Source: Alphaproteobacteria bacterium
Lineage (GTDB): Bacteria > Pseudomonadota > Alphaproteobacteria > UBA828
Length of the DNA: 64,000 nt
Direction of reading: 5' to 3'
Assembly (NCBI GenBank): GCA_963422645.2
Contig: CAXXVO010000004.1
Coordinates: 416,001-480,000, forward strand
In this document: one piece after another, positions 5,449-31,745 of the stretch
Layout: each line of letters opens with the position of its first letter
How positions within the stretch are numbered: the first letter of the stretch is position 1
The notes under the pieces: model-generated
Database searches by the model: none
Told to the model about the DNA's origin: nothing
What the model saw: only the letters and a program-made list of their open reading frames with translations
Program-made: the position numbers and the translations under genes

Positions 5449-6186
5449 TTATCGACGCGCCTGGTGGCGCGCCCACAGATCGGCGCGCCTCGTTCTGGTT
5501 ACATGTTCCGCCTGGGCACGGCGCCAGGCGTCGATGGCGGCGTGGTCGCCGGAGAGAAGCACCTCCGGCACCGCACGGCCCTCGAAGAGGCGAGGGCGGG
5601 TGTACTGCGGATACTCCAGCAGGTCGTCCTCGAAACTCTCCTCGACCAGCGAGGAGGGCCGGCCGACCACGCCGGGCAGGAGGCGCACGCAGGCGTCGAT
5701 CACCGCCATTGCCGCGATCTCCCCGCCCGACAGGACGTAGTCGCCGACGCTGAGCTCGGTAACGCCTCGGCCTTCCAACACACGCTCGTCGACTCCTTCG
5801 AAACGGCCACAGATCAGCGTGATGCCGGGGCCGTCTGCCAATGCCTTCACCTGCTCCTGGGTCAGCGGGTCACCGCGCGGCGAGAGCAGGAAGCGCTGCG
5901 CGCCACCCTCCGCCGGCACAAACGAATCGATGGCCGCTGCCAGGACATCGGGGCGCATGACCATACCCGCCCCTCCGCCGAACGGGTGACCGTCGACGGT
6001 GCCGTGTTTATCGCGCGCAAAGCGGCGGATGTCCACCGTTTCCAACCGCCAGAGGCCGGAATCGAGGCCGCGGCCGGCGAGCGCGGCGCCAAGCGGCCCG
6101 GGAAAGACCTCGGGGTAGAGGGTGAGTACGTGGACGGTCCAGGGCCGGGCGCCCGATTGCCCGCTTTCGCGCCGGGTCGCACTCAC
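5449..6186 (-). CDS. trmD: tRNA (guanine-N1)-methyltransferase
   Basis: [44 protein letters not shown]; conserved operon position. Confidence 0.97.
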
Positions 6187-10210: not shown

Positions 10211-11338
10211 ATGGCGACGCACCACCTCAACGACCGCCGCGTCGACGCGCTCAGGACCCGCAAGTCAGCCTACGACGTGCGCGACCGCGAACTGAAGGGC
10301 TTCGGCGTAAGGGTCATACCCTCGGGCACCAAGCGCTACTTCATACACATCCAGCAGCACCAGGGACGGCGAGTCTGGAAGATCGTCGGCGATGCCGACA
10401 CCATCGGCACAGACGAGGCCCGCGGCCGGGCGAAGACCCAGATGGCCGCGATCCGGGAAGGCAGCGACGCGCACGCCGCAACGCCGCCCGACATCGCCTT
10501 CGAGACGGTCGCCGAAGAAGTCTTCCGGCGCTATGCCCGAAACTGGAAGCCGTCCGCGCTCTACGTGAACCAGGGCTACTACCGCAACCAGATTCTGCCT
10601 TGGTTCGAGGGGCACCCGATTGCCGCCATCACCGTGAGTGACGTTCGGCGCTGGTTCGCGTCCCTTCACGAGACGCCGGCGGCGGCCGACCGCTCGGCCC
10701 CCATCCTCTCGGTCATCATGCGCCAGGCCGAGGTCTACGGCTACCGGCCGGAGGGAACCAATCCGTGTGCGGGCATCAGGCGGTACAGGCGCCGGGGACG
10801 GGAGCGCTTCCTCTCGGCGGCGGAGCTCCGCCGGCTGGGCGAAGTGCTGGCACGCCATGAGGCCGATCAGCCGCAGTTCGTGGCGATCATACGCCTGCTG
10901 CTGCTCACCGGATGCCGCAAGAGCGAGATCGTCACGCTCAAATGGCGCCACTACCGCGAGGGCAAGCTGTTCCTGCCGGACAGCAAGGTGGGGCCGCGCA
11001 CGGTCTGGCTCTCGTCCGCCGCGCGCGCGCTTCTGGACGGCCTGCCCCGCAGCGCGGTCTGGGTCTTCCCCTCGCCGCAGACCCGCAGCTGCTTGAGCGT
11101 GGCGACGCTCGACCGGGCCTGGCGATGCATGAGGGCGGAGGCGTACCTGTGCGACGTCCGCCTTCACGATTGTCGACACACGTACGCCAGCATGGCCCTG
11201 GCGCAGGGTGAGACAGTGCTGACCATCGGCCGGCTGCTCGGGCACCGCAATCCGGCGACCACACTGAAATACACACACATGTCCGATCTTGCGGTGCGCG
11301 AGGCGGCCGACGCCGTCGGCGCCGTCCTTGAGGGTTAA
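10211..11338 (+). CDS. Tyrosine recombinase/integrase with N-terminal arm-binding domain
   Basis: N-terminal DRELKGFGVRV; catalytic motifs TGCRKSE, HDCRH, LLGH, KYTH; AGGAGG RBS. Confidence 0.9.
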   Translation: MATHHLNDRRVDALRTRKSAYDVRDRELKGFGVRVIPSGTKRYFIHIQQHQGRRVWKIVGDADTIGTDEARGRAKTQMAAIREGSDAHAATPPDIAFETVAEEVFRRYARNWKPSALYVNQGYYRNQILPWFEGHPIAAITVSDVRRWFASLHETPAAADRSAPILSVIMRQAEVYGYRPEGTNPCAGIRRYRRRGRERFLSAAELRRLGEVLARHEADQPQFVAIIRLLLLTGCRKSEIVTLKWRHYREGKLFLPDSKVGPRTVWLSSAARALLDGLPRSAVWVFPSPQTRSCLSVATLDRAWRCMRAEAYLCDVRLHDCRHTYASMALAQGETVLTIGRLLGHRNPATTLKYTHMSDLAVREAADAVGAVLEG

Positions 11339-11341
11339 GGC

Positions 11342-12300
11342 ATGACCGCGAAGAGGCGACGCCTGACCGACGCCAACGTGGCAAAGCTGACGCCGGCGGC
11401 CCGCGAGTATACGGTCTGGGACACGCGCCATGCGGGTCTCGGCGTGCGCGTCCGCCCGTCGGGGCACCGCAGCTTCGTCTATTAGCGCAAAGGCAAGAAC
11501 GGAGCACGCAGGATCACGCTCGGTCCTGCGGCGTTGACGGGCGTCGATGAGGCGCGCACCAAGTGTCTCGCCATTGAGACCGGAGAGCGATTCGACCCGG
11601 CAAAGCGCTGTCGGGTCATCACGTTCGGGGATTTCATCTCGGGCCCGGGGCGGGCGTGTATCGACCGATGCAAGCCCTCGACGCAAAAAGCCGTAAGTTG
11701 GACCCTGAGAGCGCGCCTGCTTCCGGCCTTCGGCCCGATGCCTTTGGACCGGATCACCCATGCCAGTGTGACACGCTGGTTCGACGAATACAGCCAGACC
11801 GCGCCCGGCGGGGCCAATCACGCCTTGAGCGTGCTTCTCCGAATACTCAACCACGCAGTCCTTTGCGGTCATCTCGACACGAACCCAGCCCGCGGCATCA
11901 AGCCCAACCCGCGTCCGAAGCTCACCCGCTTTCTGTCGCGCGAGGAAGTCCACCGACTTCGCCGCGCGCTGGACCGCCACGCCGACGCGCCGCAGGCTGA
12001 CATCATCCGCCTGCTTCTGCTGACCGGCTGCCGGAGGGACGAGATCCTGACCCTGCGCTGGCAGGACTTGGACGGCAACATGCTCAATCTGGCCGACGCC
12101 AAGGCCGGACCGAGAAGAGTGTTCCTGAGCGCGCAGGCCCGCGCCGTCCTCGAGCGCCAGCCGAGAACCGGAAGCGCCTGGATCTTTCCCTCGCCGCTCG
12201 ATCCGGGGAGGCCGCGTTCGCCTCACCTGCCGCTCTGGTACTCGGTACGCAGGGAAGCCGGGATCGAGGACGTGCGGATCCACGACCTCAGGCACAGTTC
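11342..12300 (+). pseudogene. Second tandem tyrosine integrase with in-frame amber stop and missing C-terminus
   Basis: ATG at 11342 (MTAKRRRLTDANVAKL..WDTRHAGLGVRV); TAG at 11483-11485; same frame continues through TGCRRDE and HDLRH, then similarity stops before the catalytic Tyr. Confidence 0.8.
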
Positions 12301-12474
12301 TGCGGGCTACCAGAAATATCCAGCGCCAATCAGCGTTCCAAATGACAATAACCCACTGATAAAACGAAATTTCTTTCATTCAGTGCAGGCTGTCCGAATT
12401 CACTCCCAAGATTTGCGGAAGCAATCCGTAACCGGAGTTGGCTGTCTCGCCGTCACCTCCTGCCAGCCATGCCG

Positions 12475-12515
12475 GTAAGCGTTCCGGCGTAACCGTTCGG
12501 GTTCCGTAATCGTTC
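12475..12515 (+). repeat. Three stacked GTAANCGTTC motifs resembling IS66-type termini
   Basis: GTAAGCGTTC at 12475, GTAACCGTTC at 12489, GTAATCGTTC at 12506. Confidence 0.5.
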
Positions 12516-12586
12516 GTTCGGGCCGTGGAGACGCTATCTGCTTGATGCCTAGCTTTGGCGTGCCCTGGATGGCGTTGGCTGGGATT

Positions 12587-12760
12587 CTAGCGGTTTAGGG
12601 TGCGCTGCCAATCCCTTCTGAGGGGCCGGAGCCAGACGTCCTTGCAGGGTTTGTTTTGGAGCTTGCCGCGGTCGTAGCGTCCGCCCGACCCGTATCCAGC
12701 CTGATGCCCGGTAGACGGCTCCGGTGTAGCGCGGGGTCTCGACAAAGGTCTCCACGAACG
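12587..12760 (-). pseudogene. 3' fragment of a DUF4338 (DruA-like) gene, downstream of the LSR insertion
   Basis: TFVETPRYTGAVYRASGWIRVG, then a frameshifted GRYDR..KPCKDVWLRPLRRDWQRTLNR*; continues the PVLIE end of the fragment at 15578. Confidence 0.8.
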
Positions 12761-13207
12761 TCACAGACTACTATCTTGCAGGCTTCCGAGGCTCCTGAGC
12801 CCGTTCGCATTCGACGCTACAAGCATCCTTTCGACGGTGAGGCGATCGAGATTCTCGATCGGCGCAAAGGAGGTTACGGGGGCCGGACTCTGAAGGTTCG
12901 GATGCCGGACGGCAGCTGTTGTTGGATACCAGCGGCATGGACGAGCCTTGGAGCCCGTCCCGAGGATGCACCACGCCTGATCGGAGAGTTGTCTGATTTC
13001 CTCACCCTCCTTAATCTTCTGAATGACCTTGATGAGAGGGAACTCAGGCGCGATGGATGCGGAGCAGGAGTTGGCGCTGATCGCGCTGATGGAGTGGGAG
13101 GAGCGCCGGGACCGGTGGCTGGCGTTTCCGGCTCCGGACCGGGATCGCGTCGTGCAGGGTCTGGCCGATCTGATGGTTCGGATTGCGGATCGGGAGGCGG
13201 CCGATGA
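12761..13207 (+). CDS. DUF5372/Y4bD-like accessory ORF body with no start codon at its 5' end in the integrated state
   Basis: VRIRRYKHPFDGEAIE...PDGSCCWIPAAWTS...DFLTLLNLL resembles the HP..G / DG..IP..WT pattern; no in-frame ATG precedes the HP..G motif; TGA overlaps the recombinase ATG (ATGA). Confidence 0.6.
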   Translation, partial: SQTTILQASEAPEPVRIRRYKHPFDGEAIEILDRRKGGYGGRTLKVRMPDGSCCWIPAAWTSLGARPEDAPRLIGELSDFLTLLNLLNDLDERELRRDGCGAGVGADRADGVGGAPGPVAGVSGSGPGSRRAGSGRSDGSDCGSGGGR

Positions 13208-13244
13208 CGGTCGATCCGTCGAAGATCACCCAGCGTCATCTTGA
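13053..13244 (+). CDS. Small hypothetical protein upstream of the recombinase (63 aa)
   Basis: MDAEQELALIALMEWEERRDRWLAFPAPDRDRVVQGLADLMVRIA; helical; present in both element copies; overlaps the DUF5372-like frame. Confidence 0.45.
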   Translation: MDAEQELALIALMEWEERRDRWLAFPAPDRDRVVQGLADLMVRIADREAADDGRSVEDHPASS

Positions 13245-15386
13245 GCGTCTTGCAGTTGTCTACGTTCGCCAGTCGACACCCTTGCAAGTGAACGCGCACC
13301 AGGAATCGCAGCTGCGCCAATACGCGCTTGGCGAGCGTGCCCGGGAGATTGGCTGGCCGGCCGAGCGGATACGGACGATCGACGCCGATCTTGGCGAGAG
13401 CGCAAGCGAGAAGGCGCGCGGCGAGCGTGGCGGCTTTCGGGAGATGTGCGACCTGATCGCCCGGGACCATGTCGGGGGCATCTTCGGGATTGAGGTTTCG
13501 CGGCTCGCCAGGAACACGATGGAATGGTTTCAGCTTCTCGATCTATGTCGCAGGCACGACACGGTTCTGGTTGAGGACTGCCACATCTACTGCCCGAGCC
13601 GGGACGACGACTCCCTTGTCCTGGGGATCAAGGGAACCGTGAGCGCCGCTGAGCTGTCTCTTATTCGCGCCCGGATGGAGGGCGGAAAGCGGAACAAGGC
13701 GCTTCGTGGCGAGTTGTACTCGCGCGTTCCGATCGGATTTGTGCGGGATGGCTCGACTTTGCGGAAGGATCCGGATGCCCGGGTTCAGGCGGCGATTGCA
13801 ACGGTCTTTGCGCGTTTTCGGCAAGCCGGTTCGGCCCGCCAGGCGACGATGCTGCTGCGTGAGGCGGGCGAGGATGTTCCCTCTCGCCGGCACCCGGGGG
13901 CAGCATTGGAATGGGGCCCGGCGCGCTATGAACGGGTGTACCGCATCCTCACCAACCCGGCGATGGGCGGCGCCTATGCCTACGGCTTCAAACGCGGCGT
14001 TGGTCACGGTGCGCCGCTGCGGCCGGTCCAGGAGCGCTGGGATATTCTTCAGCCGGAGAAGCATGAGGGATATGTCAGTTGGGCAGAATGGCTTGAAGTA
14101 CAGGAGCAGCTGGCCCGCAACCACATGGCTCCGGACGGAGCCCGCGGCGCGGCGCGGGAAGGGTCGGCTCTGCTCCAGGGTCTCGCGGTCTGCGGCGGCT
14201 GCGGATTGCCGATGACCGTCTACTACAGCAAGACGGGCTGGGGGTATGAGTGCCGCAAGCGCGATGCTGCGCGCCGGCGCGGCGGTTGTTGGTCGACAGG
14301 CGGCAAGCGCGTTGATGCGGAAGTTGCCCGTCTGTTTCTCGATGCGGTCACGCCGGCGGGGGTGGAGGCGGCCCGGCAGGCGGCTTGTGATGTTGCTGAA
14401 CGCGGCCTGCGCGCGTTGCGCCGTTGGGAGCTGGATCTTGAGCACTGCCGGTACGAGGCGCGGCTTGCCGAGCGGCGCTACAAGCAGGTCGATCCCGACA
14501 ACCGTCTGATTGCGGCAACGCTGGAGCGCGAGTGGGAGAAGGCGCTTCGCGCCGAGAAGGCTGCACAGGAAGCGCTTGAGGCGGCACGGGCGCGTCAGCC
14601 CGCGGCCCCTGCCCCGGCGCGGTTTTCGAGGGTCTCGGCGCGCGCCTGTCGCAGGTCTGGGGGGCGTCGTCGACGACCATGCGCGAGCGCAAGCGCCTGC
14701 TCGCCTGCCTCCTCGACGAGGTGACGATCGAGCTTGCGCGACAGGAGCGTGAGATCATGGCAACATTGCGCTGGCGTGGCGGGCAGATCGACGAGATCAC
14801 TTTGCCGATGCTCGCGGGCTCTCCGACACCCCGGCGCGATGAGCGCAGCACGGTCGAGCTCGTGCGCAAGCTGTCATGCTTTTACAACGACCGGGAGACC
14901 GCGAAGGTTCTCACCCGCCAGGGACGGCGCACAGCACGGGGTCTGGATTTCACGGCCGAGCTTGTTGGCAGCCTGCGTCGCCGCCATGGCATTGCGCCCT
15001 ACCAGCCCGACGGGGACGAGCCGGTGCTCATGGGCGTTGCCGATGTGGCGAAGGAGATCGGAGTCTCGGATGACACCATCTATCGCTGGATCCGCGAGGG
15101 GCTGGTTCCGGTTGCCCAGCCCGATATCGAAGGTGCTCCTCTTCGGATCCGGATGACCCCGACCTTGCGCGAGCGCTTTCGTGAGGCGCCTCCGGAGGGG
15201 TTTGTTCCCCTCGCTGTGGCAATGGATCGTCTGGGTGTCACGCGGCAGACGGTCTGGGAACGGATCAAGGCGGGCAGGCTGGACAGCTGCCATGTGACCC
15301 GCGGCAAGACGCGCGGACTGTATGTGCGTTTGCCGGTCGAGGACGAACTGCCGCTGCTGCGCGGGCTCAACGGTGATGGGGGGTGA
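13204..15386 (+). pseudogene. Large serine recombinase (~726 aa if repaired) with 2-bp frameshift near 14618
   Basis: YVRQST catalytic Ser, EVSRLARN, recombinase domain, zinc ribbon CGGCG..YEC..C, coiled coil VDPDNRL, two C-terminal HTHs; reads GGCGCGGTTT where copy 2 reads GGCGGTTT. Confidence 0.88.
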
Positions 15387-15577
15387 CCATGCCCGGACCG
15401 TCAGGCAAAACGCCCGATGCAGATCCGCACCTCCAACGTGCGATACTGGAAAATCACGTCCGGCACGATGTAAAGGTCGCCGCGGCGGCAACAACGGAAT
15501 CCAAACCGCCTTTTCTATCAATGCGGTAGAAACGCCCGCCCACCTGCACAACGGAGAAGCATTATGAAGCCTTCATC

Positions 15578-16023
15578 TCGATGAGCACCGGGGTGATGTT
15601 GTAGCGCTCGGTCCAGTCCCCGGGCAGGCGGCAGCGGACGATGGCGAGGATGTGTGAGCCGAGGTTGGGGATCTCGATCCAGGGCAGGATCAGGAACCGC
15701 GGGTTGTCGACCACCAGGGGGAGGTTCTTCTCGCGCTTCTCGGGCGTCCATCCAATGAACCTGTAGCGCGGTGCAAGCCTCCAGGCGGCGGTGGAGAAGC
15801 CGAGCATGGTCAGCGGCCAGCCGTTTCGGTCGTAGACGGCGTAGCGCATCTGGGCGCCGACCAGGGTCTTGAAGCCGAGATAGTGGTAGCGGGCGACGAA
15901 CTCGTTCCACAGCCTGCCGTCGCGGGTCTCGCGCACGACGGGGCGCATCTCCAGCGGGCGGACCTCGGCGAGGGTGGTCGGGGCCGGGAACAACGGCGGT
16001 CTCGTCTTCTCAGAGAGCGCCAA
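15578..16023 (-). pseudogene. DUF4338 (DruA-like) gene fragment A, interrupted after PVLIE
   Basis: WNEFVARYHYLG..LVGAQMRY..LGFSTAAW..FIGW..RFLILPW..NLGSHIL..DW..RY..PVLIE. Confidence 0.85.
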
Positions 16024-25761: not shown

Positions 25762-26110
25762 CCTTAATCTTCTGAATGACCTTGATGAGAGGGAACTCAG
25801 GCGCGATGGATGCGGAGCAGGAGTTGGCGCTGATCGCGCTGATGGAGTGGGAGGAGCGCCGGGACCGGTGGCTGGCGTTTCCGGCTCCGGACCGGGATCG
25901 CGTCGTGCAGGGTCTGGCCGATCTGATGGTTCGGATTGCGGATCGGGAGGCGGCCGATGACGGTCGATCCGTCGAAGATCACCCAGCGTCATCTTGAGCG
26001 TCTTGCAGTTGTCGTAACTGCCCAGGTCGTCTGATTTGTCATTTTGGGCCAGTGGATTGAGGCGTTTCTCGTTCGGAGTTGGTGGAAAGGGCTTGACGGG
26101 AATTTCGGGA

Positions 26111-28693: not shown

Positions 28694-31284
28694 GCTCACC
28701 TGGCACGGGTTCTCCAACAGCGGAGCCATTCTCATAAACGATCATGGTCGACGCCGTGCTGGACCACCCCATAGAATGAAAATCGGTGCCCGTCGCGCGG
28801 GCGGACTTCGGGCCACATCGGGGTAGCTTACCGGTCGCAGTCCGCAAGAGGGGCATCGTGAGCTGTGAAACCCGGCGACCACAGAGGAGCACACGGGCGT
28901 CGCGTGGGTAGCGTTGTGCCGAATCCCAGAGAATTTTCACAGCAAGAACCTGGGCAGTTACCAGTTGTCTACGTTCGCCAGTCGACACCCTTGCAAGTGA
29001 ACGCGCACCAGGAATCGCAGCTGCGCCAATACGCGCTTGGCGAGCGTGCCCGGGAGATTGGCTGGCCGGCCGAGCGGATACGGACGATCGACGCCGATCT
29101 TGGCGAGAGCGCAAGCGAGAAGGCGCGCGGCGAGCGTGGCGGCTTTCGGGAGATGTGCGACCTGATCGCCCGGGACCATGTCGGGGGCATCTTCGGGATT
29201 GAGGTTTCGCGGCTCGCCAGGAACACGATGGAATGGTTTCAGCTTCTCGATCTATGTCGCAGGCACGACACGGTTCTGGTTGAGGACTGCCACATCTACT
29301 GCCCGAGCCGGGACGACGACTCCCTTGTCCTGGGGATCAAGGGAACCGTGAGCGCCGCTGAGCTGTCTTTTATTCGCGCCCGGATGGAGGGCGGAAAGCG
29401 GAACAAGGCGCTTCGTGGCGAGTTGTACTCGCGCGTTCCGATCGGATTTGTGCGGGATGGCTCGACTTTGCGGAAGGATCCGGATGCCCGGGTTCAGGCG
29501 GCGATTGCAACGGTCTTTGCGCGTTTTCGGCAAGCCGGTTCGGCCCGCCAGGCGACGATGCTGCTGCGTGAGGCGGGCGAGGATGTTCCCTCTCGCCGGC
29601 ACCCGGGGGCAGCATTGGAATGGGGCCCGGCGCGCTATGAACGGGTGTACCGCATCCTCACCAACCCGGCGATGGGCGGCGCCTATGCCTACGGCTTCAA
29701 ACGCGGCGTTGGTCACGGTGCGCCGCTGCGGCCGGTCCAGGAGCGCTGGGATATTCTTCAGCCGGAGAAGCATGAGGGATATGTCAGTTGGGCAGAATGG
29801 CTTGAAGTACAGGAGCAGCTGGCCCGCAACCACATGGCTCCGGACGGAGCCCGCGGCGCGGCGCGGGAAGGGTCGGCTCTGCTCCAGGGTCTCGCGGTCT
29901 GCGGCGGCTGCGGATTGCCGATGACCGTCTACTACAGCAAGACGGGCTGGGGGTATGAGTGCCGCAAGCGCGATGCTGCGCGCCGGCGCGGCGGTTGTTG
30001 GTCGACAGGCGGCAAGCGCGTTGATGCGGAAGTTGCCCGTCTGTTTCTCGATGCGGTCACGCCGGCGGGGGTGGAGGCGGCCCGGCAGGCGGCTTGTGAT
30101 GTTGCTGAACGCGGCCTGCGCGCGTTGCGCCGTTGGGAGCTGGATCTTGAGCACTGCCGGTACGAGGCGCGGCTTGCCGAGCGGCGCTACAAGCAGGTCG
30201 ATCCCGACAACCGTCTGATTGCGGCAACGCTGGAGCGCGAGTGGGAGAAGGCGCTTCGCGCCGAGAAGGCTGCACAGGAAGCGCTTGAGGCGGCACGGGC
30301 GCGTCAGCCCGCGGCCCCTGCCCCGGCGGTTTTCGAGGGTCTCGGCGCGCGCCTGTCGCAGGTCTGGGGGGCGTCGTCGACGACCATGCGCGAGCGCAAG
30401 CGCCTGCTCGCCTGCCTCCTCGACGAGGTGACGATCGAGCTTGCGCGACAGGAGCGTGAGATCATGGCAACATTGCGCTGGCGTGGCGGGCAGATCGACG
30501 AGATCACTTTGCCGATGCTCGCGGGCTCTCCGACACCCCGGCGCGATGAGCGCAGCACGGTCGAGCTCGTGCGCAAGCTGTCATGCTTTTACAACGACCG
30601 GGAGACCGCGAAGGTTCTCACCCGCCAGGGACGGCGCACAGCACGGGGTCTGGATTTCACGGCCGAGCTTGTTGGCAGCCTGCGTCGCCGCCATGGCATT
30701 GCGCCCTACCAGCCCGACGGGGACGAGCCGGTGCTCATGGGCGTTGCCGATGTGGCGAAGGAGATCGGAGTCTCGGATGACACCATCTATCGCTGGATCC
30801 GCGAGGGGCTGGTTCCGGTTGCCCAGCCCGATATCGAAGGTGCTCCTCTTCGGATCCGGATGACCCCGACCTTGCGCGAGCGCTTTCGTGAGGCGCCTCC
30901 GGAGGGGTTTGTTCCCCTCGCTGTGGCAATGGATCGTCTGGGTGTCACGCGGCAGACGGTCTGGGAACGGATCAAGGCGGGCAGGCTGGACAGCTGCCAT
31001 GTGACCCGCGGCAAGACGCGCGGACTGTATGTGCGTTTGCCGGTCGAGGACGAACTGCCGCTGCTGCGCGGGCTCAACGGTGATGGGGGGTGACCATGCC
31101 CGGACCGTCAGGCAAAACGCCCGATGCAGATCCGCACCTCCAACGTGCGATACTGGAAAATCACGTCCGGCACGATGTAAAGGTCGCCGCGGCGGCAACA
31201 ACGGAATCCAAACCGCCTTTTCTATCAATGCGGTAGAAACGCCCGCCCACCTGCACAACGGAGAAGCATTATGAAGCCTTCATC

Positions 31285-31745
31285 TCGATGAGCACCGGGG
31301 TGATGTTGTAGCGCTCGGTCCAGTCGTCGGGCAGGCGGCGGCGGACGAGGGCGAGGATGTGCGAGCCCAGGTTGGGGATGGTGATCCAGGGCAGGATCAG
31401 GAACCTCGGATTGTCGACGACGAGCGGGAGGTTCTTCTCGCGCGATCGTGGCGTCCAGCCGATGAAGTTGTCGCGCGGAGCGAGCTTCCATGCGGCGGTT
31501 GAGAAGCCGAGCATGGCGATGGGCCAGCCGTTTCGGTCGTGGACGGCGTAGAGCATCTGGGCGCCGACGAGGGTCTTGTAACCGAGATAGTGGTAACGGG
31601 CGACGAACTCGTTCCACAACCTGCCCTCGCGGGTCTCGCGGACGACGGGGCGCAGGTCGATCGGGCGAACCTCGTCGAGGGTTGTCGGGGCCGGAAGCAG
31701 CGGCGGCTCGGTGTCCGGCCCGAAGACGACTGGCTTTGGCCGGTG
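31285..31745 (-). pseudogene. DUF4338 (DruA-like) gene fragment B, interrupted after PVLIE
   Basis: Diverged paralog of 15578-16023 ending at the identical junction. Confidence 0.85.

Follow-up and report, generated by a model that had tools for sequence, protein, structure and literature searches.

Mobile elements need to sense whether they are integrated or free, and promoters that arise at the junction of the joined ends, as in IS911-type elements, are a known solution. The locus described here raises the question of whether the same problem can be solved at translation, by a gene that is whole only when the ends of its element are joined. It lies in a 64,000-nt stretch of DNA (the window; positions 416,001 to 480,000 of the forward strand of contig CAXXVO010000004.1, assembly GCA_963422645.2) from an Alphaproteobacteria bacterium of the lineage UBA828, and consists of a 2.8-kb insertion-sequence-like unit with a large serine recombinase (LSR) gene, bounded by the bases TCTC at 12749-12752 and 15576-15579. 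At the right end of this element stand a Shine-Dalgarno word, a start codon and the first codons of a gene, all facing outwards, while the remainder of that gene, a member of the DUF5372 family, stands at the left end. Here, we describe this split-start anatomy and its conservation among related elements, and argue that the best overall explanation, which we consider probable, is an element moved by its LSR whose DUF5372 gene is complete only on joined ends.

The start signals occupy 15553..15575 on the forward strand and comprise GGAG (15553-15556), a 7-nt spacer, ATG (15564-15566) and three further codons, and the last 31 nt of this right end are the same in L009 and L010, two relatives with 90-92% identity. 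The body of the open reading frame (ORF), stop codon included, lies at 12752..13207 (+) and lacks both a Shine-Dalgarno word and a conserved start; its stop, TGA at 13205-13207, overlaps the ATG of the LSR gene at 13204-13206. A first reading of this DNA made from its letters alone (the sequence-only reading) had placed the start signals at one end, the right, and the body of the gene at the other, and the GGAG, the ATG at 15564 and the TGA/ATG overlap are indeed there, but its left boundary, a TC at 12761-12762, was 12 bp too far in. Element copies, empty sites and contig joints all put that boundary at the TCTC of 12749-12752, and so differ from the earlier coordinates, which in form is one of the outcomes named in advance as refuting that reading, although the shift is a multiple of three bases; because 12 bp amount to four codons, the frame across the joined ends survives the correction. 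The junction ORF accordingly has 156 codons in place of the 152 amino acids first predicted, still in frame, from an ATG 16 nt before the right end and behind GGAG. Its left-end frame had also been described as having no start at its 5' end, which is accurate as regards Shine-Dalgarno words and conserved starts but overlooks an in-frame TTG at 12776, to which we return below.

The evidence for these boundaries comes from several directions. In the 23 contigs of the genome itself, TCTC adjoins all 10 left ends and all 11 right ends, beside at least four different left flanks and at least five different right flanks. Three paralogous target genes are empty, and in each the left flank meets the right flank across four common bases. 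Logan contigs of four public runs (X1, X3, X4 and X5), mapped to 12650-15680, contain an exact skip from 12748 to 15576 (2827 bp, with four ambiguous bases) in three of the four runs. The 2-bp crossover core is inside the four bases of the TCTC. Seven full copies of the element are present, together with several broken ones; they have the same defined ends in different contexts and carry inside them only mobility genes, namely the DUF5372-like ORF, a small ORF that we term orfB and the LSR gene, as is expected of an insertion sequence. A scan of genome contigs with the LSR gave four loci, with L009 and L010 being relics that retain the right end only and the other two being weak and short (29% and 41% identity), and a megablast of the element against plasmids returned no match.

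The left flank (12549..12748, minus strand) encodes the C-terminal part of an interrupted DruA/DUF4338-like target gene, the ORF at 12549..12764 (-) continuing the gene whose N-terminal part lies to the right of the element. That N-terminal part is in the right flank (15580..16023, minus strand), where Pfam finds DruA (PF14236, E 7.5e-29) in the ORF 15562-16023 (-), and because this match to DruA/DUF4338 is on the minus strand, the element sits inside the DruA-like gene and antisense to it. Six of the copies in the genome have flanks that are identical across the 56 nt compared; these copies are probably carried by a larger repeat, which makes independent insertions fewer than copies. The DruA-like target gene itself seems to be part of a larger repeat, which was copied with the element already inside.

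How readily such an arrangement arises by accident can be gauged from random 'ends' placed in the same genome, which have an in-frame ATG at 13-19 nt at a rate of 0.027, and an in-frame ATG together with a Shine-Dalgarno-like word at a rate of 0.0043. The GC content of the three codon positions is of the coding type over the first 270 nt of the ORF, the DUF5372 frame fitting only at about 12780-13020, and at about 13020 the pattern switches to the frame of orfB. The conserved domain ends near 13050, and the tail behind it overlaps orfB in a different frame; the last 60 or so codons of the DUF5372-like ORF are by composition non-coding. As the composition there fits orfB, the tail of the ORF would be kept open by something besides its own protein sequence.

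A further test is whether the layout recurs in homologous elements. Their ends were defined by comparing copies within a genome, by rebuilding the interrupted target gene, or by the rigid geometry of one lineage, termed B, in which the A of the ATG is followed by 14 nt, a 2-bp core, 10 nt and a conserved 11-mer. Fifteen elements with ends defined to 2-6 bp were obtained in this way, and their junctions were recomputed from coordinates. They fall into seven lineages, namely A (the element of this genome, in a DruA/DUF4338-like gene), A' (G009 and G195, target ssb), B (the seven genomes G020, G008, G013, G014, G011, G009 and G231), C (G005), D (G013, target the Walker A motif of IstB), E (G017, target an IS66 transposase) and F (the y4bD/y4pK elements of pNGR234a from NGR234, and plasmid 2 of Aromatoleum aromaticum EbN1). 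The ends of the EbN1 element were placed by alignment with NGR234 and a common CCTT, its two copies being identical over the 4.6-kb query and hence not independent, and those of the 7.5-kb repeats of G008 and of the G009 and G231 copies follow from the lineage-B geometry, copy comparison alone being insufficient there. Outside the fifteen stand L054 (with a secondary insertion), L053, L069, L081, L032 (left end only), L009 and L010 (right end only) and extra copies. A 'family A' repeat of G009, starting after the DUF5372 gene (from L021), was considered and rejected, since its start reflects an insertion in that copy.

In all fifteen elements the two ends carry an identical core, as expected of crossover by an LSR, and in the seven lineage-B elements, where the cores CG, AC, TG, TG, TT, CG and TT are each the same at both ends, this is resolved to 2 bp. 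Each also has, behind a Shine-Dalgarno-like word such as GGAG, GAGGTG, AAGGTG or GGGTG, a start codon 13-19 nt before its right end (14 use ATG and one GTG), from which the reading frame continues into the left-end ORF with no stop. In all fifteen the junction ORF is thereby cut by the recombination core at about codons 5-6, and it is never the recombinase gene that is split. The prediction of the sequence-only reading that the right-end start would stay in frame across the core in homologous elements is thus borne out in all seven lineages. These lineages are deeply diverged: the LSRs of nine aligned elements (from A', B, C, D and E) share 35-39% identity with that of the window, and C, D, E and F have end sequences that do not resemble those of A and B. 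Within lineage B, GAGGTG and ATG are invariant in all seven elements and the next 11 nt vary. As the lineages are related, however, the agreement among the fifteen is best read as conservation over deep divergence and not as fifteen independent trials.

Beyond these elements, a protein search in 61 related genomes found recombinases 36-43% identical to the LSR of the window (61% for one short fragment), often in multiple copies, and a search with PF17342, the Pfam model of DUF5372, detected the small gene in 11 of the genus's 21 genomes as against 3 of 401 genomes sampled across the class. Degenerate arrangements are also seen. In G013 an element (L053) has lost its right end and has an ABC-ATPase gene after the LSR stop, an element of G195 (L069) is broken by IS21, and a DUF5372 gene of Streptomyces (L081) has no LSR gene adjacent to it in the same orientation.

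The genes are packed closely at both ends of the element. The DUF5372 stop overlaps the LSR start in lineages A, C, D and E, as ATGA, TAATG, ATGA and ATGA, respectively, and the LSR stop lies between 8 nt past and 52 nt before the right-end start in 13 of the 15 elements, overlapping it as ATGA in three. The exceptions are the A' element of G009 (110 nt) and the element of the window (180 nt), in which a non-coding right-end region (15387..15552, +) between the LSR stop and the Shine-Dalgarno word may hold a promoter. Because of this packing of stops and starts, the genes of the joined form follow one another as a tight operon without beginning or end, and in the integrated form the sole break in this ring of cistrons comes about five codons into the DUF5372 gene. 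The sequence-only reading had also suggested that the stop/start overlap may couple translation of the small protein to that of the recombinase; the overlap recurs, as just described, but strict translational coupling is not indicated, since the LSR genes have Shine-Dalgarno words of their own and RNA structure at the LSR starts is no better than in shuffled sequences (four folds, z -0.94 to +0.65).

The LSR gene (13204..15386, +) is frameshifted in the window by an extra GC at 14617-14618, leaving the pieces 13204-14724 and 14679-15386, and is intact, without the extra GC and encoding 726 amino acids, in five of the seven full copies, the frameshift being shared with one other copy (on C8). 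The form that is shorter by 2 bp is found in all four public runs. The frameshifted copies could move if the five intact ones supply the LSR in trans. Pfam finds Resolvase (PF00239, E 2e-17), Recombinase (PF07508, E 8e-10) and a borderline Zn_ribbon_recom (24.8 bits, cut-off 25.3) in 13204-14622, and HTH_17 in the C-terminal piece. R22, Q23 and S24 are invariant in ten aligned LSRs, as are the zinc-ribbon cysteines 330, 333, 350 and 362 among the aligned LSRs. LSRs of this clade have a C-terminal extension of about 250 residues in which an excisionase-type HTH_17 is accompanied by a second, weaker helix-turn-helix signal from other such families (P0001, residues of about 600-700), which is unusual for serine integrases. 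The remaining gene, orfB (13023..13244, +, with ATG 13023 or 13053), begins within the tail of the DUF5372 ORF and extends 40 nt into the LSR gene. The codon-position GC of 13020-13240 fits its frame (GC of the third position 0.74 against 0.47 for the second), it can be aligned in the relative L032, and analogous ORFs occur in lineages C, D and E; a Pfam scan of orfB gave no family.

The small protein had been assigned to a DUF5372/Y4bD-like family, and this assignment rests on relatives more than on the window copy. The window ORF scores 18.3 bits against PF17342 (E 0.0023), below the cut-off of 25, but the relatives used here reach 26-82 bits, and the single match in a protein search with the window ORF, its nearest database homologue P0002, carries PF17342. 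Alignment of the small proteins (A1) shows H25, G29 and L86 to be invariant across the lineages. An AlphaFold2 model (mean predicted local distance difference test score, pLDDT, 77.9) consists of a small beta-barrel followed by a C-terminal helix; Foldseek found no match to this model at E <= 0.001, the best being barrels of the SH3/Tudor/KOW type at an E of about 0.05.

Co-folding of the small protein with the LSR gave a score of 0.70, against 0.00 for the best of three controls. Of 80 solved complexes 58 attain this mark, as do 2 of 110 mismatched pairs, counts that hold only roughly here, as our own alignments were used; contact agreement between the runs was at least 75%, and the pLDDT of the partner at least 63. 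In the predicted interface the invariant HP motif and the leucine-rich C-terminal helix of the small protein lie on LSR residues 331-334 (in the zinc ribbon), 381-394 and 468-528, which we take to flank the coiled coil of the LSR, placed by eye only. The predicted binding site of the DUF5372 protein is thus the base of the coiled coil together with the clade-specific region behind it.

Together, these features suggest a route by which the element could distinguish its two states. The LSR would move the element into a fixed site of DruA/DUF4338-like genes, where its ring of genes is opened at the attachment site, whose core cuts the DUF5372-family gene about five codons from its start. The right end of an integrated element therefore carries, facing outwards, this gene's Shine-Dalgarno word and start codon with four or five codons, and the left end carries the start-less remainder. 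Where the LSR joins the ends, in an excised circle or at any head-to-tail junction, a complete cistron would form directly downstream of the LSR gene, reaching through orfB up to the LSR start codon. Because it is the joined ends that complete this cistron, the DUF5372 protein could be made only from the excised form; that the anatomy has this meaning for translation seems to us likely. The protein would then mark the excised state and, we infer, act on the LSR. Existing only after excision, it would not be a classical excision factor, and its likeliest roles would be to favour re-insertion by biasing the LSR in that direction, to prevent renewed excision, or to tune the ratio of LSR to orfB by its own translation, which, in running through orfB to the ATGA overlap, may raise LSR synthesis and lower that of orfB in the circle. 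The sequence-only reading had named directionality, targeting or reintegration as possible roles, for which the structure prediction makes the protein a candidate. In any one specific biochemical role we place considerably less confidence than in the anatomy and its consequence for translation.

Several observations weigh against this account. The head-to-tail junction, sought as a 48-mer and as a 30-mer, has no occurrence in the assembly, and the circle junction that the sequence-only reading expected to be found in reads is likewise missing from the Logan contigs of the four runs, which show no 'go back' joint over 12650-15680, such contigs being prone to drop rare variants. A scan of the linear sequence 12600-15700 for sigma-70-like consensus promoters found no sites, although promoters of Alphaproteobacteria may depart from this consensus. 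A classical excision factor has to be present before excision, the reverse of a protein made only afterwards, and the Shine-Dalgarno words of the LSR genes and the lack of an RNA structure signal at their starts, noted above, do not point to strict translational coupling. Copy number overstates independent insertion, given the six copies with identical flanks, and the common ancestry of the fifteen elements means that their fixed geometry could in part reflect what the LSR needs of its binding sites at the ends. Two elements also depart from the pattern. In the A' element of G009 the start is a GTG, the Shine-Dalgarno word of one copy is weak, and there is a further, internal GTG behind AGGA; and in L054, a relative from lineage E, the frame is kept only when a secondary insertion of about 190 bp is left out of account. 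This insertion in L054 (G011:C3), about 50 nt inside the left end, resembles a miniature inverted-repeat transposable element, with terminal inverted repeats and an 8-bp direct repeat, and interrupts the start of the DUF5372 ORF.

Four other explanations have to be set against a gene completed on joined ends. The small protein might be made from the integrated element by way of an internal start (TTG 12776 here, GTG elsewhere), leaving the right-end ATG incidental. Besides the in-frame TTG, this could appeal to a GTG just before the HP motif in six of seven lineage-B elements, to the GTG behind AGGA in the A' element of G009, to the homologue P0002, which starts only eight residues before the domain, and to gene callers, which adopt internal starts. 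We hold it to be unlikely, since neither the TTG nor the lineage-B GTG has a Shine-Dalgarno word and the codons themselves are not kept: that matching the TTG is CCG in the nearest relative, L032, the lineage-B GTG is GTA in G014, and the GTG given as the start in the RefSeq annotation of pNGR234a (L071, 4989) is replaced by GCC in the third, diverged copy of NGR234 and by GCG in EbN1. In lineage E the first 40 codons are free of in-frame ATG, GTG and TTG, and the first candidate in lineage D comes after the HP motif. The coding sequence of EbN1 in RefSeq (L080) begins at 5953, three bases inside the left end, with a codon that we read by hand as ATC, which is not a usual start, and synonymous changes upstream of the lineage-B GTG (TTT/TTC, CGG/CGT) suggest that this stretch too is coding. 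Internal starts in homologues, which the sequence-only reading had named as one of the findings that would overturn it, are therefore absent or not conserved. That the small ORF is no gene at all, being a chance open frame in GC-rich DNA, is exceedingly improbable; the window copy does score below the Pfam threshold and the tail of its ORF is non-coding by composition, but against this stand the scores of its relatives, 219 database homologues at E <= 1e-5, the histidine, glycine and leucine columns invariant across lineages, the coding pattern of the first 270 nt and the confidence of the AlphaFold2 model.

A different objection grants the gene and disputes the switch. If the right end were only a binding site of the LSR, the Shine-Dalgarno word, ATG and frame would be by-products of an inherited attachment-site geometry, as the relatedness of all fifteen elements, the likeness of the A and B ends around the ATG and the rigid spacing in lineage B would allow. 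We judge this quite improbable, because C, D, E and F, whose ends differ in sequence from those of A and B, nevertheless each have a Shine-Dalgarno-like word and a start at 13-19 nt, because in lineage B it is these signals that never change and the bases closer to the core, at which the enzyme has to bind, that do, and because the frame from start to domain is free of stops in all fifteen and the LSR stop abuts the right-end start in the manner of an operon. It is also conceivable that the complete gene forms at head-to-tail tandem copies, whose junction would have the same sequence as that of a circle, or is served by read-through from the flank, with no link to excision. In integrated copies the frame can indeed be open far into the flank, back to TTG 12656 (183 amino acids) in the window and to lengths of 122, 156 and 949 amino acids in otherwise identical copies of G020, which differ because the frame runs on into each flank. 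This, however, we regard as very improbable: the assembly holds no tandem junction, a start derived from the flank would be accidental, as each copy can have other flanks and these run antisense to the target gene, and excision of a circle by a serine recombinase is established for TnpX of Tn4451.

The completion of a DUF5372 gene on joined ends, as proposed here, has partial parallels in systems that already tie expression to integration. In sib retroregulation of the phage lambda int gene, the permutation of the genome by the attachment site makes expression of a recombination gene depend on integration; there, unlike here, the mechanism is RNA processing of a 3' site, with no split coding sequence. 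For Tn4451, a junction promoter has been documented for TnpX, in a similarly small LSR-moved element whose joined ends in the circle switch on expression that serves re-insertion, with the difference that a promoter is assembled there and its target is the recombinase gene, whereas here it is the Shine-Dalgarno word, start and first codons of a separate accessory gene. Junction promoters are also documented for IS110/IS1111 elements (Pjunc; PMC11187229) and ICEclc (Pcirc; PMC5812530), where an outward signal at one end likewise acts on the genes of the other end only after circularisation; these cases are transcriptional and involve tyrosine or DEDD enzymes, unlike a coding sequence split by the crossover site. 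ISEc21, moreover, targets a conserved motif inside the transposase gene of another element, much as the present elements do. Closest in its geometry is the archaeal SSV-type 'suicidal' integrase, whose gene, according to PMC7253208, is split by its own attachment site, so that the recombination site lies inside an ORF, integration splits the gene and only the circle carries it whole. There, however, it is the tyrosine integrase itself that falls into two large fragments, whereas in this bacterial case the LSR is whole and a small, cofactor-like gene is cut about five codons from its start.

The protein itself invites comparison with the recombination directionality factors (RDFs) of serine integrases, which have no common fold (PMC11795197). 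Like them, it is small, encoded beside the recombinase and predicted to sit at the base of the zinc ribbon and coiled coil, a region at which known directionality factors act, gp3 of phiC31 being described as binding via the zinc domain near the coiled coil (PMC5814800). It differs in that an RDF is needed in the integrated state for excision and the DUF5372 protein seems makeable only after it, and no known RDF matches it in sequence or in fold (best Foldseek E 0.05). Relative to the known junction promoters and SSV-type split integrases, the split translation start of an accessory gene appears to be new, and as anatomy it is well supported by the comparison of elements. Our literature search found no serine-recombinase element described as receiving a start codon from across its junction, subscription journals lying outside its scope, and the term 'DUF5372' is named in none of about 8.4 million full texts searched.

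The integrated-versus-free problem thus seems to be solved here at translation, and for an accessory protein of the LSR, in a layout conserved over proteobacterial lineages that include a plasmid sequenced in the 1990s. This would give the DUF5372 family its first testable function. Serine integrases are in wide use for genome engineering, and the layout may hint at a form of directionality control that is new for these enzymes. A bolder generalisation is possible, but in our view rather doubtful: the whole DUF5372/Y4bD-Y4pK family might consist of excision-state sensors, that is, cofactors of this LSR clade that are translated only from joined ends, as the last and first cistron of a circular operon, and that set direction at the base of the coiled coil. 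If so, the elements would be a so far undescribed family of serine-recombinase insertion sequences homing to motifs in the genes of other mobile elements, such as the Walker A motif of IstB, IS66 transposases, tyrosine integrases, ssb and DruA-like genes.

For annotation the consequences are more immediate. The called lengths of the 219 database homologues pile up at 101 and 81 amino acids, which we take to be the products of two different internal start codons, and the public annotations of the DUF5372 family are probably wrong at the N-terminus. The split layout explains why gene callers disagree on the start of DUF5372 genes, and pipelines that see only the integrated form will systematically mis-call genes of this kind.

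A number of smaller observations concern the surroundings of these elements. Where translated flanks were read (L056 in G013, L055 in G017, L054 in G011, L070 in G195, L062 in G009 and L071 in pNGR234a), related elements sit at conserved motifs in mobile-element or DNA-handling genes, namely the Walker A codons of IstB, an IS66 transposase, a tyrosine integrase just after HDLRHT, and ssb. Both pNGR234a and EbN1 have an annotated IS21-like istB gene in the left flank. The lineage-D recombinase of L056 (G013) is in two overlapping frames, and the same split, with one TGA, is found at all three loci L056-L058, which are either three copies of one broken element or a programmed feature.

The window itself contains a second copy of the element, in two parts at 25762-26013 and 28962-31286, broken near the start of the recombinase by an insert of about 2.9 kb whose ORFs we take to be IS1595-like and IS66-like transposases; its right end also adjoins TCTC and a DruA-like flank. 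To the left of the first copy lie an intact tyrosine integrase gene (10211-11338) and a second one (11534-12478), the frame of which departs from integrase sequence right after HDLRHS, and this pair beside the element suggests a nest of mobile elements.

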